Source: Eledone cirrhosa
Taxonomy: Eukaryota
Direction of reading: 5' to 3'
Length of the DNA: 64,000 bases
Assembly: GCA_964016885.1 (NCBI GenBank)
Contig: OZ024742.1
Location: forward strand, 118,110,001-118,174,000
Both the position numbers and the translations under genes were made by a program. A model generated the notes under the pieces. It saw nothing but the letters and a program-made list of their open reading frames with translations, ran no database searches and had not been told where the DNA came from. Of the stretch, positions 634 to 38,283 are shown one piece after another. Position 1 is the first letter of the stretch; each line of letters begins with the position of its first letter.

Positions 634-820
634 ATAGAAATGGCTTCTACAAGAATAGAACTGTTTCATTCGAAGGAAATCATCACGGCTTTCCTGATGA
701 TTTCCTTCGAATGAAATAGTTCTAGTCCTGTAGAAGCCATTTCTATATTAAATATCTATACACTGCTATGTATTGAGTACTTTACTTACTGTGGTTACCC
801 CCGATTGAACCCGGGATACA
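634..820 (+). mobile_element. Short non-coding PLE-terminus insert with fold-back 5' end and HHR
   Basis: About 634-685 is the reverse complement of about 695-748. The tail (ttgagtac...aacccggga) recurs near 37670-37717 and 61925-61968. Flanked by (TA)n/(CA)n. Confidence 0.75.
687..738 (+). ncRNA. Type I hammerhead ribozyme
   Basis: ggctttc-CTGATGA-t ttc cttc gaa t-GAAA-tag ttctagtc ctg-TA-gaagcc. Stems I, II and III pair; GUA cleavage triplet. Confidence 0.75.
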
Positions 821-1034
821 CACACACACAAATATGTATATATCATCGCGATGTTGGTATATTGTTGTTGTTCAACCCCAGGTCATTCCAAATTCGGTAG
901 ACCTATAGTAAAGTACAACCCAGCCTTGATTATCTCGTCTTATATTGTACCGAGAACTATGTACTGAGAACTATATTATTCAACGTGTCATTTAAAAAAA
1001 CTGTGGAACGTGATATACTGCTATTTCTAGTAGG

Positions 1035-1614
1035 TCAATCCCTTACGTTATTTCGATATTTGTTCAATCCCTTACGTTATTTCGGTATTTGTTCAATCCC
1101 TTACGTTATTTCGATATTTGTTCAATCCCTTACGTTATTTCGGTATTTGTTCAATCCCTTACGTTATTTCGGTATTTGTTCAATCCCTTACGTTATTTCG
1201 GTATTTGTTCAATCCCTTACGTTATTTCGATATTTGTTCAATCCCTTACGTTATTTCGGTATTTGTTCAATCCTTTACGTTATTCCGGTATTTGTTCAAT
1301 CCCGTACGTTATTTCGATATTTGTTCAATCCCTTACGTTATTTCGGTATTTGTTCAATCCCTTACGTTATTTCGGTATTTGTTCAATCCCGTACGTTATT
1401 TCGATATTTGTTCAATCCCTTACGTTATTTCGGTATTTGTTCAATCCCGTACGTTATTTCGATATTTGTTCAATCCCTTACGTTATTTCGGTATTTGTTC
1501 AATCCCTTACGTTATTTCGGTATTTGTTCAATCCCTTACGTTATTTCGGTATTTGTTCAATCCCTTACGTTATTTCGGTATTTGTTCAATCCCTTACGTT
1601 ATTTCGGTATTTGT
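1035..1614. repeat. Minisatellite, 29-bp unit, about 20 copies
   Basis: Head-to-tail TATTTGTTCAATCCCTTACGTTATTTCGG with few variants and no spacers. Confidence 0.95.
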
Positions 1615-1751
1615 AATCGTATTTCGTTTGTCATTGAATTAAATTTCTCCCGAAGTGAAATTCATCGTCGTTTTGCAATGTAAGGCACAACTGGTTAAAT
1701 ATACAGTATTTGCTATGCAATGACCTGCAGAGATACTGCGATAAAATATTG

Positions 1752-2205
1752 GTTTCTGATTTAGGCACAAGGCCAATATTTTGGGAGGAAGGGAAAGTTA
1801 ATTAAATCGACCCAAGTGCATTACTAGTACTTTATTTTATCGACCACCCCCCTCCCCCAGCCTCCGTAAGGATGAAAGGCAAAGCTAACCTCGGCGGTAC
1901 TTGAACTCAGAACGTAAAGGACCTTCATTATATGCCACGCCACAGGGTGTCTGATGCTATAGCGATACTACCAATCCCCCGCCCTTACAATAATCGCTTC
2001 GTATATAGGCACAAGGAGAGCAATTTAGGGGGAGGGGAAAGTCGATTAAATAGACCCAGTGCGTGACTGGTACTTTATTTTATCGACCCCGTAAGGATGA
2101 AAGGCAAAGTTAACCTCGGCCGGATTTAAACTCAGATCATAAAGGGCCGTAACTCTATGCTGCAAAGCATGGTGTCCGACGCTCTACCGATACTACCACT
2201 CCCCT
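1752..2205 (-). mobile_element. Two tandem tRNA-derived SINE copies
   Basis: Reverse complement of the family seen at 28572, with core ATCGACCCCGTAAGGATGAAAGGCAAAG and a B box. Confidence 0.8.
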
Positions 2206-34500: not shown

Positions 34501-37500
34501 ATCCTCGCCCTCCTTGTCACCACCCTCCCCTCCCACATCTCCGACACCAACCACGCCCTGCGCCTTTTCGACTCCTTCACCTACCCACCCGGCCCACAGC
34601 CCTTCTTCTTCACCCCAGACATCAAGTCCCTCTATACCGTCATCCCCCACGCCTACGGCCTACGTGCCCTCAAGCACTACCTCGACCTTCGCCCCTCCCC
34701 CATCTCCTCCACCCCACCCCCTTCGCCTCGCCGAGCTGGTCCTCACCCTCAAATTTTCTCCTTCTCGGGTGAGTTTTACCAACAGGTCACGGGGGTAGCC
34801 ATGGGTACAAGAATGGGCCCAAACTATGCCAATCTTTTTGTTGGCCATGTTGAGGCCCAAATCTTTGCCCAATATACCGGCCCCACGCCCGAACTGTACG
34901 GTCGTTACATCGACGACTGTATCGGAGCCACGACCCTCACCCGAGAACAGCTCGACTCCTTTCTCTCTTTCTTCTGCTCCTTCCACCCCTCCCTCCACTT
35001 TACCACCTATATCTCCACCACCCACGTCCACTTCTTAGACATCTCCGTCGCCTTCGACCCCTCCCACCACTCCCTCGTCACCTCCGCCTTCTTCAAACCC
35101 ACCGACTCCCACTTCTACCTCGACTTCACCTCTTCCCACTCCACACACACTAAACACTCTATTCCCTACTCCCAACTCCTCAGGATCCGCCGCCTCTGTA
35201 GCCGAGATGCTGACTTTGAGTCCCTGGCCCTTTCCCTAGTTAGCCATTTCATCCGCAGAGGTTACCTCCCCTCTCTCGTCCACACCGCTCTCACCCGCGC
35301 CCGTGCTGTCCACCGCTCCACCACCCTCACCCCACGCCACCGCACACCCACCCACCGTCTCCCCTTCCCCATCACCTACCACCCCTCCACCATACCCCTC
35401 CACCGCACCATCCTCCGCCTCTTCCGACGCCTCCAGTCCGACCCCTCCACCACCCACATCTTCCCAGCCCCACCACTCCCCTCCTTCAAACGCGCACGCA
35501 ATCTCCGCACCCTCCTCGTCCACATCTCCCCCCCCCCGGTTCCCTTCCCTGTTCCAGGCCCCGCTGCAACACCTGTCCCCACATCACCAACACCACCACT
35601 TTCCAGGGTCCCAACGGCCACTCTCTCTCTGTCCGGCATGCCTTCCGCTGCACCTCCTCCAACCTAGTCTACGGACTTCGCTGCATGGAGTGCAGCGCGA
35701 CCTACGTCGGACAGACTGGACGTCGCCTGGCGGACAGGTTTACTGAACACCTCCGAGATATTCGTCTCGGTGGTAGTTCCCCCATCGCCCACCACTTTGG
35801 TGCCCCTGGACATTCCGCACACCACCTCAGTCTGTGGCCTACTCCAATGCCACGGAACACCCACCACTCTCCTCAGGGTCGAACAACGAACCATCTTCAC
35901 TCTACAGACCCACACTCCCCCCGGCCTGAACTCCCCACCCTTATTCCTTTAGCCTTCGACCGCCCCTCCCCCACACATATCCCCCACTAACACCACTAAC
36001 ACACCCCTCCTTTTCAACGCCCACCCCACAACTAACAATACTAGCACCTCCACCCCACACGCCCGACCACCCTTCCCCAACTAACATACTAACATCCCTC
36101 CCTTCTTCCCCCCCTCCTTATCACACGCACACACCCACCGGTACATATATACACGCGCTCACACTAAACACACACCCTACTACCACCACTAACCCTCACC
36201 CCCACACATCCACCCCACCACCCGCAACTAACATCACTAACACCCCCCGACCCCAAGCACACGAACACAGACACCCACTTACACCACCCACTCTACACGC
36301 AACTAACATCACTAACACCCCCCAACCTTACGCACACGAACACACACACCCTCTTACACCACCCACTCTACACACCCTACCACCACTGACCCCCATTCAC
36401 ACCCGTATTCAACCCTTTCTCCACCTCCAGTATACTAACACCCACTAACACCTCCTTCACCACATACACACTCATCCAAACACGCACACACACACCAGTA
36501 CACTACACCCCCTCCATCGGCTCCCACACCCTTCTCTCTCCGCTCCACCCACACCCTTTCACACACACACACACATCCCACTAACACCACTACTAATACA
36601 TACACACACCCTCCCCACTCCAACTTTCACACCTACCCATCCTCTTCCCTGTCCACCGCACCTCCGCACAAACTGACACACCGACTTTCTTCACTTACCA
36701 TTCTACCCTACTGCTGTTATGCCCTTATCTCTGACCACCTCCCCGCACACACAGACACACAACCCTCCTCCTGCCTTGACCCTCTGACCACTTCCTGTTG
36801 CGCGCGCACCCCACACCTCCCCTCTTCCGACCAATCTCTTCACGGATTACACATATGTGAACATCGATCCCTAGAATCCACCACATCCCAAGGATATTAC
36901 TCAGCATCCACAACGTCGTCCATGGAACTACCTTAAGGACTCATCCACTGACATACACCCCCAAAAAATGTGTTGCCCCACACGCCACCTACATCCACAA
37001 CATCATAAACACCACACACACACGTGCGTACCACCACATATTTACACATTCAGCCTCCGGAATCCTCTCCCCCCACCCTTCTATCCACACACGCACACAC
37101 ACTCCGACCTACACCCCACCCCATTCACACCTCTTCCTGAACATGCAACCCCGTTCTTCCCACAACCCTTGCTTTCACATACACACACACACACACGTAC
37201 ACCTACACACACACACCACCTTCTACCCTCCCCGCTAGGACACCCCGCCTCCCTCTCCCCACTCCACCCTTCCACCACCTGTTTTACTTCATGTGTATTT
37301 TTATTTTTATTTTTATCATGCTTTTATATTTAATTTCATTTGTACCGTTTCCTCTCACCCCCTTTTATCTATATGTCTCTCCACCACTCCCCGACACACC
37401 CTTGGAACTCTCTTCCCACACACTTTTCACCTGAAGAAGGGCTTATGCCCGAAACGTCGTTCCCCACCACCACACCACCACTCCACTCTCAAGAGCGTGA

Positions 37501-37558
37501 AACTAATAAACCTTTGTTCGTACTGCCTCTCTGTTTTGTTCCCGTTCAATTTTTTACT
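34501..37558 (+). mobile_element. C-rich Penelope-like element (RT + GIY-YIG), 5'-truncated and frameshifted
   Basis: DIKSLYT; GVAMGTRMGPNYANLFVG..RYIDDC..FLDISV..KPTDSH..SIPYSQLLRIRRLCS; GIY-YIG YVGQTGRRLADRFTEH; terminal HHR; (TA)n on both sides. Confidence 0.92.
37429..37460 (+). ncRNA. Minimal PLE-type hammerhead ribozyme
   Basis: ac-CTGAAGA-a gggc ttat gccc-GAAA-cg-TC-gt. Confidence 0.72.
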
Positions 37559-38074
37559 ATATATATATATATATATATATATATATCATATAAAAATGGC
37601 TTCTACAGGACTAGAACCGTCTCAATAGAAGGAAATCATCAAATATTAAGTATTTATACTCTGCAATGTATTGAGTACCTTACTTACTGTGGTTACACTC
37701 GATTGAACCCGGGATACACATATCTATCTCTCTCTCTCTCTCTCTCTATCTATCTATCTATCTATCTATCTATCTATCTCTCTCTCTCTCCCTCTCTCTC
37801 GCTCTCTCTCTCTCTCTCTCTCTCTCTCTGTATATATATATATATATATATATATATATATATATATATATATATATATAACGAAGGAAATGTGTCCAGA
37901 ATTAGCCGTCGAAACGGCTTGAGCTCAGCCGTCGGGGTCTTACTTGTTCCTATATATATATATATATATATATATATATATATATATATATATATATATA
38001 TAAGTATTGAAGTTTCCGTTGAAAATTGAAAAAGTCAGAGGAATAAAGAGTGCTCTATGTAAGTTACACAGCTA

Positions 38075-38283
38075 AATATTTAATGTATAATAGACAATAC
38101 AGTATAATTACCTCATTACCAGAGGTTTCCCGAACAAGACGAATACAAGACACGTCCTCATTCGTTCGTCAGACAATTGCCTTGTCTGACGAACGAATGA
38201 GGACATGTCTTGTATTCGTCTTGTTCGGGAAACCTCTGCTAATGAGGTAATTATACTGTATTGTTTATTATACATTAAATATA
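38075..38283. repeat. Fold-back inverted repeat with a hammerhead core in each arm
   Basis: Plus arm 38186-38249: CTGACGA-a cgaatgaggac...gtcttgttcg g-GAAA-cctc tgctaat gagg-TA. Mirror at 38109-38172. Confidence 0.8.

Follow-up and report, generated by a model that had tools for sequence, protein, structure and literature searches.

Penelope-like elements (PLEs) often insert with an inverted 5' segment of their pseudo-long terminal repeat (pLTR), as the initial annotation of the DNA studied here had stated. This trait is in print: Arkhipova et al. 2013 described inverted pLTRs with palindromic junctions and proposed self-priming as their source (PMC3846280). We analyzed a 64-kb stretch of the Eledone cirrhosa genome (contig OZ024742.1, positions 118,110,001 to 118,174,000), referred to below as the window. 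It is an AT-rich eukaryotic sequence with numerous (TA)n tracts and a short interspersed element (SINE)-like repeat, and it contains Penelope-like inserts that bear hammerhead ribozymes (HHRs) and fold back on themselves. The explanation we lean towards is that the cDNA of truncated PLEs snapped back and was joined to a second-end cDNA, with the ribozyme not required. The palindromes themselves are a known PLE trait. In the open-access main texts searched, nothing was found that maps PLE inversion junctions to HHR coordinates.

Endonuclease-containing (EN+) PLEs also show head-to-head inverted copies, a tail at one end only and palindromes at the junctions (PMC3846280). The account of inversions given there favors self-priming on an antisense template, with the junctions not located at the ribozyme, whereas one site of the window suggests DNA snap-back into the flank. 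The PLE hammerheads of Cervera and De la Pena 2014 (PMC4209133) are likewise type I HHRs in pLTRs, and their helix II is preceded by one additional base. That study also reported helix III loops that are palindromic, numerous solo motifs and opposite-strand pairs 100-700 bp apart; the passages on these pairs do not link them to junction positions. Several window HHRs differ from those hammerheads in having a helix II of 36-103 nt. For Poseidon PAc in vitro (Frangieh et al. 2024; PMC11167929), two reverse transcriptase (RT) start sites bounding the tail, cutting and extension of both strands, and AT-rich targets were likewise found, and the sections on insertion do not treat inverted junctions. 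In R2 insertions (Zhang et al. 2024; PMC11371274), the 3' end of the cDNA likewise starts synthesis on its own strand or on target DNA close by, for one protein particularly when the cDNA was full-length. R2 makes one cDNA, which gives a short antisense stretch, in contrast to the two-armed palindromes described here.

Inverted arms were confirmed at all five fold-backs named in the initial annotation (sites 1 to 4 and 6), with loops of 9, 10, 1, 6 and 5 nt, respectively, and all five lie within hammerhead-bearing, Penelope-like inserts in (TA)n. Positions were counted relative to C3 of CUGANGA, so that U4 is +1. The short inserts and one intact relative are as follows.

632-685, minus strand: site 1, family A, inverted tailless arm, inner end at U4 of CUGAUGA
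686-822, plus strand: site 1, forward copy; C3 694, G12 713, cleavage site after 732; its arm is 695-748 and its tail 749-822
5559-5888, unstranded: site 2 palindrome, family B2, both arms tailless (5559-5718 and 5729-5888), 10-nt loop 5719-5728; GAAAC at 5824, cleavage site after 5835
9744-9945, unstranded: site 3 palindrome, arms 9744-9795 and 9797-9848, 1-nt loop, tail 9849-9945
10616-10717, plus strand: intact HHR of the site 3 family; C3 10621, G12 10654, cleavage site after 10665
9968-10248, unstranded: site 4 palindrome, arms 9996-10118 and 10125-10248, 6-nt loop, tail 9968-9995
38003-38278, unstranded: site 6 palindrome, arms 38080-38176 and 38182-38278, 5-nt loop, tail 38003-38079
37588-37720, unstranded: family A insert, inverted arm 37588-37641, tail 37642-37720

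Three of the centers lie where they had been placed. At site 1, the loop (686-694) consists of the helix I 5' strand and C3; the forward copy begins at -8 and the inverted arm stops at U4, which bears out a center near 686 at the start of CTGATGA. At site 3, alignment to the intact copy puts the ends of the inverted and forward arms on the first and second base past the cleavage site, so that the center given at 9796 is correct to 1 nt. No inverted arm was found for the intact copy. Site 6 carries HHRs with C3 at 38172 (minus) and 38186 (plus), and its arms, centered on 38179, end 4 and about 9 nt before C3, in agreement with a center near 38178 just 5' of CTGACGA.

The two centers that had been assigned to a long stem II were confirmed in part. 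At site 2 (about 5723) the fold-back is real, and its forward arm probably starts at about the first base of the 103-nt helix II, just past the box; C3 was placed from a 65%-identical family at 9411 and from folding. CTGGTGA at 5721 was rejected as the core box, as it pairs as the helix II 5' strand. At site 4 (about 10120) the fold-back also stands, but its placement in the HHR does not: the center (10122) is about 66 nt 5' of GAAA, only the 3' half of the HHR is present, and without a box the junction is unplaceable. CTGAAAA at 10126 was rejected as that box because helix II does not follow.

The junction at 37641 was missing from the initial list. There the inverted arm stops at U4 and joins the tail directly, and the forward arm is absent. 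This insert resembles the product of L1 twin priming, in which an inverted 5' piece is attached to a forward 3' piece; duplication of a whole arm with a 1-10-nt loop does not arise by that route. The insert sits in (TA)n directly after a GC-skewed element with RT and endonuclease-like sequences (34456-37560), which has a minimal hammerhead at 37429-37457.

The HHRs were searched for with a strict type I descriptor, which gave 8 matches at 6 loci in the window versus 0.2 per window in 30 Markov-shuffled controls. The motifs at 9411, 59983 and 61846 were recognized by eye and fail this descriptor. Helix II is 90-103 nt in the hammerheads at 9411-9527, 25559-25667 and 5721-5835, which short-spacer descriptors would miss. 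An Rfam scan (E up to 1) gave no hammerhead among the 150 of 171 matches listed; these were mainly microsatellite or hairpin similarities to microRNA models, below the gathering score.

The inserts, which span at least five families in the window, share several features with EN+ PLEs. An inverted 5'-truncated copy with a tail at one end only is present, as is an HHR in the terminal repeat (the descriptor loci above). One arm is tailless against (TA)n and the other bears the tail at sites 1, 3, 4 and 6 and in the long inserts. The type I core (CUGANGA, GAAA, NUH site and three helices) is present, at site 4 without the box, and the RNAs are predicted to self-cleave. Insertion is in (TA)n or AT-rich targets, and target-site duplications are unreadable within the repeats. 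Tails are 28 to about 150 nt, compared with 30-40 bp in the PLEs treated in PMC8557442. Tandem head-to-tail HHR units, a feature of non-LTR retrozymes, were not found in the window, where each insert is either an inverted pair or a single copy. No open reading frame (ORF) is present in the short inserts; their anatomy and HHRs suggest that they belong to the PLEs.

At site 2 the fold-back extends beyond the element, in the following arrangement.

5300-5472, plus strand: host flank (SINE-like repeat and unique DNA), recurring inverted at 6001-6171
6001-6171, minus strand: inverted left-flank copy, 92.5% identity, consistent with synthesis beyond the element end
6142-6188, unstranded: second small fold-back, 21-nt arms, 5-nt loop
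6184-6434, plus strand: B2 copy with a tail, truncated at its 5' end within helix II; identity to the palindrome arms 97-98%

Past the right arm, microsatellites and 173 nt of the left flank reappear in inverted orientation. Because element RNA cannot supply host flank, this overshoot points to snap-back on DNA, and it favors such a DNA-level event over self-priming on antisense RNA. The small fold-back meets the tail-bearing copy through a 5-nt microhomology. The simplest reading of site 2 is that a cDNA snapped back, copied itself, ran into host DNA and then met a second cDNA.

The snap-back explanation is preferred because of the short loops, the microhomology and the host-flank overshoot. 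If reverse transcription is target-primed at the two ends of a cut in (TA)n, 5'-truncated PLE copies would result, and two RT start sites would leave one arm tail-bearing and the other tailless. The free 3' end of a stopped cDNA would fold back via a few bases and copy itself, and joining of this product to the second cDNA would give a head-to-head palindrome. The combination of a tailless and a tailed arm is expected if RT starts at two sites and both cut strands are extended. The two start sites and the extension of both strands (PMC11167929) and R2 snap-back (PMC11371274) are taken from the literature, and the order of events is our reading of the anatomy, the loops, the flank overshoot and the recurrence in reads that were observed.

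Half of the placeable junctions (5/10) lie 93-1000 nt upstream of the ribozyme. In four further inverted-arm inserts, unlisted in the initial annotation, the junctions precede C3 by 93, about 146-170, 784 and 805 nt. The inserts with distant junctions include the following.

6567-9720, unstranded: long insert of family B1; the inverted arm comprises 6567-6803 and 7493-7581, and a forward RT remnant begins near 7582; HHR C3 9411 with a 98-nt helix II, distant from the junction
14516-14968, unstranded: site 5, diverged inverted arm 14516-14654 similar to 14796-14933; HHR C3 14930
23606-25830, unstranded: long inverted-arm insert with a GIY-YIG remnant, 954-nt arms 99% alike, 215-nt loop; HHR C3 25559 and 23775
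58405-60110, unstranded: long inverted-arm insert with an endonuclease-like remnant, junction 59133-59178
60119-61970, unstranded: family A' inverted pair, 60119-60266 (minus, tailless) and 61753-61970 (plus, tail, C3 61846)

Site 5 had been described as an inverted arm at 14517 that stops at the CT of CTGAGGA. This was a misreading, as 14517 is the outer end of the diverged arm; with an estimated position for the tailless end, the inner junction lies upstream of C3, by about 134 nt on the inverted arm and 270 nt on the forward copy. In the 23606-25830 insert, a 6-nt microhomology at 24775 closes the loop, and the junction is 784 nt from the HHR. In the 58405-60110 insert, the junction is about 805 nt upstream of C3 59983. 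Both inner ends of the A' pair are 93 nt upstream of C3, with other inserts in between; the center (60267-61752) holds (TA)n and more HHR-bearing pieces (C3 60831 on the plus strand and about 61208 on the minus strand). Palindrome centers may attract later insertions. Families A and A' differ in helix I on both strands, and the idea that they are spliced and unspliced forms was rejected for this reason. Two other features were noted nearby. The insert at 57950-58192, between (TA)n tracts, begins like the 3' end of the 58405-60044 family and has a CTGACGA box that GAAAC does not follow. At 62013-62143, inverted arms of 33-38 nt enclose (TA)n and unique sequence, and no hammerhead was recognized.

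Clustering of the junctions on the ribozyme, as claimed initially, was tested on 10 events against permutation and log-uniform nulls, with zones drawn after the data were seen; site 4, 62013-62143, 12558-12600 and 34254-34371 (SINE-internal) were excluded. For the HHR footprint as a whole the clustering was not beyond chance (5/10 junctions; permutation P = 0.19, log-uniform P = 0.07). The narrower CUGANGA zone, -10 to +16 of C3, gave the claim nominal, post hoc support (4/10; P = 0.035 and 0.004). Without the insert at 37588, which is non-independent, the respective values are 0.25 and 0.14 for the footprint and 0.07 and 0.02 for the C3 zone. An earlier count of 9 events, made before the A' pair was recognized, gave smaller P values. 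Most of the apparent clustering may be attributed to the distance of the HHR from the RT start (60-190 nt), as a result of which short inserts end in or near the HHR. A positional bias toward the 5' half or front edge of the HHR is possible, and the link to the ribozyme is an unproven lead based on these 10 events. It is rather doubtful that the ribozyme fixes the junction in a large class of palindromic inserts of 100-350 bp.

Several observations weigh against the snap-back explanation. Junctions in the C3 zone or at the cleavage site make up 5/10 of the events (permutation P = 0.009, log-uniform P = 0.0006, zones post hoc; 0.018 and 0.003 without 37588), and this excess is not explained by pure size selection. 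At site 2, the flank copies show about 10 difference events per 173 nt versus 1 per 160 in the arms (Fisher P = 0.011); compared with the tail copy (2/113), P is 0.13. Since the flank copies are more diverged than the arms, a single event would need later homogenization of the inner arms, and an older flank palindrome at site 2 is possible. Finally, the read support is at the level of a family and comes from none of the five named loci.

The extra bias at the HHR 5' edge or cleavage site, if real, most likely marks the 5' ends of template RNAs, where RT would run off. The ribozyme would then set the junction through the end of the template, from which the cDNA snaps back; this supplements the snap-back explanation and does not replace it, and we regard it as possible but not probable. 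Such ends may be made by self-cleavage, as at 9796, or, at the 5' base of helix I, by a transcript start, a splice boundary or a block to a 5'-3' exonuclease. One rule, run-off at an RNA 5' end, would cover both the edge and the cleavage-site excess. It fits the site 3 center exactly at the cleavage site. It also fits sites 1 and 6, where the long arms stop at the helix I 5' end, and the U4 ends of two independent family A inserts. In the intron described for D. virilis, the end is at the helix I 5' end (PMC4209133), and a folded ribozyme has been proposed to block 5' exonucleases in R2 templates (PMC11331408). On the other hand, HHR cleavage was dispensable for PAc insertion in vitro, and in the RNA-seq data presented ends were not seen at the PAc cleavage site (PMC11167929).

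Reads bear on this reading in both directions. Four runs, among 15 listed, were mapped onto 61062-61972 at 80% likeness, with depth in 31-nt bins, and the joint figures cover the 15 joints listed out of 42. Nine of these 15 change strand, all in family A. They run from 61841-61864 (C3 61846) to 61861-61862, as at site 1, or to 61907-61923, as in the 37588 insert; the 61843-61861 form is found in 8 contigs of run X1 with a summed depth of 63.6. The strand switches occur in contigs of X1 and of X5, which is from another organism, and in raw reads of X13 and X14, which are from other samples. The hairpins are thus present in raw reads at the family level, and the fold-back structures are genomic and recurrent at that level. 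In family A, the bin that contains the helix I start shows a rise in depth of about 100-fold in X1 and 8-fold in X13, as expected of a template end. Upstream of this step the loose ends are mixed (agreement 0.41-0.59). As the read reference has a minority upstream sequence, with which most copies do not align until about 61843, the step may reflect alignment clipping, and 6 of the 9 strand-change joints, those at 61841-61843, may be clipped there. Nearly the entire visible range of the joints is HHR, which makes the positional test weak. At the cleavage site (61884), no depth step was seen in the 31-nt bins and no joint among those listed, which speaks against template ends made by cleavage. 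Raw reads of two samples also contain 65-77-nt head-to-tail units with the whole family A hammerhead (61833-61909), a retrozyme-like, very short tandem form that is absent from the window.

Metagenome contigs were scanned with a pattern for palindromes built around the minimal HHR 3' core; with the window and the one read mapping, this one productive scan makes up the evidence base. The scan gave 55 loci, of which 26 passed the filter for outward arms and an HHR. L032 (no HHR by eye) and L052 (a duplicate of L044) were dropped. The remaining 24 loci fall into 17 clusters, and at five loci C3 was placed from helix II. From their HHR form and anatomy, these fold-backs are probably PLE inserts. 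Loops of 9 nt or less occur in 13 of the 24, versus 6.0 expected with independent ends (P = 0.002), which shows that the fold-back anatomy is widespread and that the two ends are coupled. The centers lie between -11.5 and +11 of C3, a range fixed by the 15-nt window of the pattern, so that the scan shows recurrence and not HHR enrichment. Template ends are not favored here. The counts by gap size (4, 9 and 11) do not fall toward the upstream edge (Kolmogorov-Smirnov P = 0.16), and a rule that would put the end of the long arm at the 5' boundary of an extended helix I, which fits sites 1 and 6, was rejected since it matches only 3 of 16 folded loci. In one cluster (L006, L019, L033 and L053) the fold-backs are nested and multistep, as if by repeated snap-back. 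The family A motif was not found in the metagenome contigs searched, nor the palindromic HHR pattern in the viral contigs searched.

According to PMC8557442, it is unclear what the hammerhead does in PLEs. A map of junctions in ribozyme coordinates would test cleavage or end protection in vivo from genome data alone. If template ends do set the junctions, genomic palindromes would record the sites at which PLE hammerheads cleave or protect RNA in vivo, and host flank could be carried along by snap-back synthesis.

According to the initial annotation, the palindromes come from the folded HHR itself, which would halt RT or, through its own helices, bring about template switching or self-priming. 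We consider this unlikely. All five placeable short inserts end in the footprint (P = 0.01-0.08 for arms of 20-170 nt), and several window HHRs have a long helix II, as such a generator would have it; a sixth short pair, A', ends outside the footprint. RT moves 3' to 5' and would stall as it enters the helices from the 3' side; the junctions instead lie on the 5' side, where RT would have finished unwinding, and not at the point of entry. Priming on its own stems requires centers at a helix apex, and 0/5 are there. The 5/10 distant junctions are unaccounted for, Naiad PLEs without canonical HHRs still carry inverted 5' copies (PMC8557442), and the second HHR family in the mapped region (61062-61260) has no strand-change joint among those listed. 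Self-priming as the palindrome source is retained from the claim, given the short loops and the flank overshoot, and the ribozyme as generator is not.

It is very improbable that non-autonomous master copies with a ready-made hairpin gave rise to the short palindromes, with shared junctions reflecting descent. Site 1 and the 37588 insert do share the U4 end, but the listed family A joints begin at several positions from 61841 to 61864, junctions vary within single metagenome clusters (L005 versus L012; L015 versus L031), and the window inserts belong to several families. Assembly or library artefacts are scarcely credible: although the reads were mapped at the level of a family and X1 may be the assembly's own sample, the arms of the short palindromes differ from each other by substitutions and indels and stop at element-defined tail boundaries, and the family A switches recur in contigs of two organisms and in raw reads.

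Coding remnants in the window were compared with RT and endonuclease families. The putative RT remnant at 7549-7962 has no Pfam match and resembles eukaryotic clusters, in one of which RVT_1 occurs in 68% of members (score 0.91). An RVT_1 match at 34456-35664 is below the cut-off. For 24554-25141, PF01541 was matched at E = 6e-4 with 20.6 bits, below the cut-off of 22.6, and GIY-YIG occurs in 18% of the members of its atlas neighbors (0.96). No Pfam match was found for 59376-59807 or 35244-35987.

Two other regions, an AT-rich tract at 48500-50100 and the satellite at 45121-45444, were set aside because their palindromes are simple repeats. Minisatellites occur at 1039-1613 (unit of about 27 nt) and 45121-45444 (unit of about 34 nt); the latter unit contains an 18-nt AT palindrome and a fragment of the SINE-like repeat. 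ORF remnants at 38724-39956 (minus) and 30447-31019 (plus) presumably derive from non-LTR retrotransposons (long interspersed elements), whose reverse transcriptases they resemble by motif. On the minus strand, 53110-54732 encodes a rhodopsin-family G protein-coupled receptor in a single ORF of 540 codons (Pfam 7tm_1, E = 1e-44).

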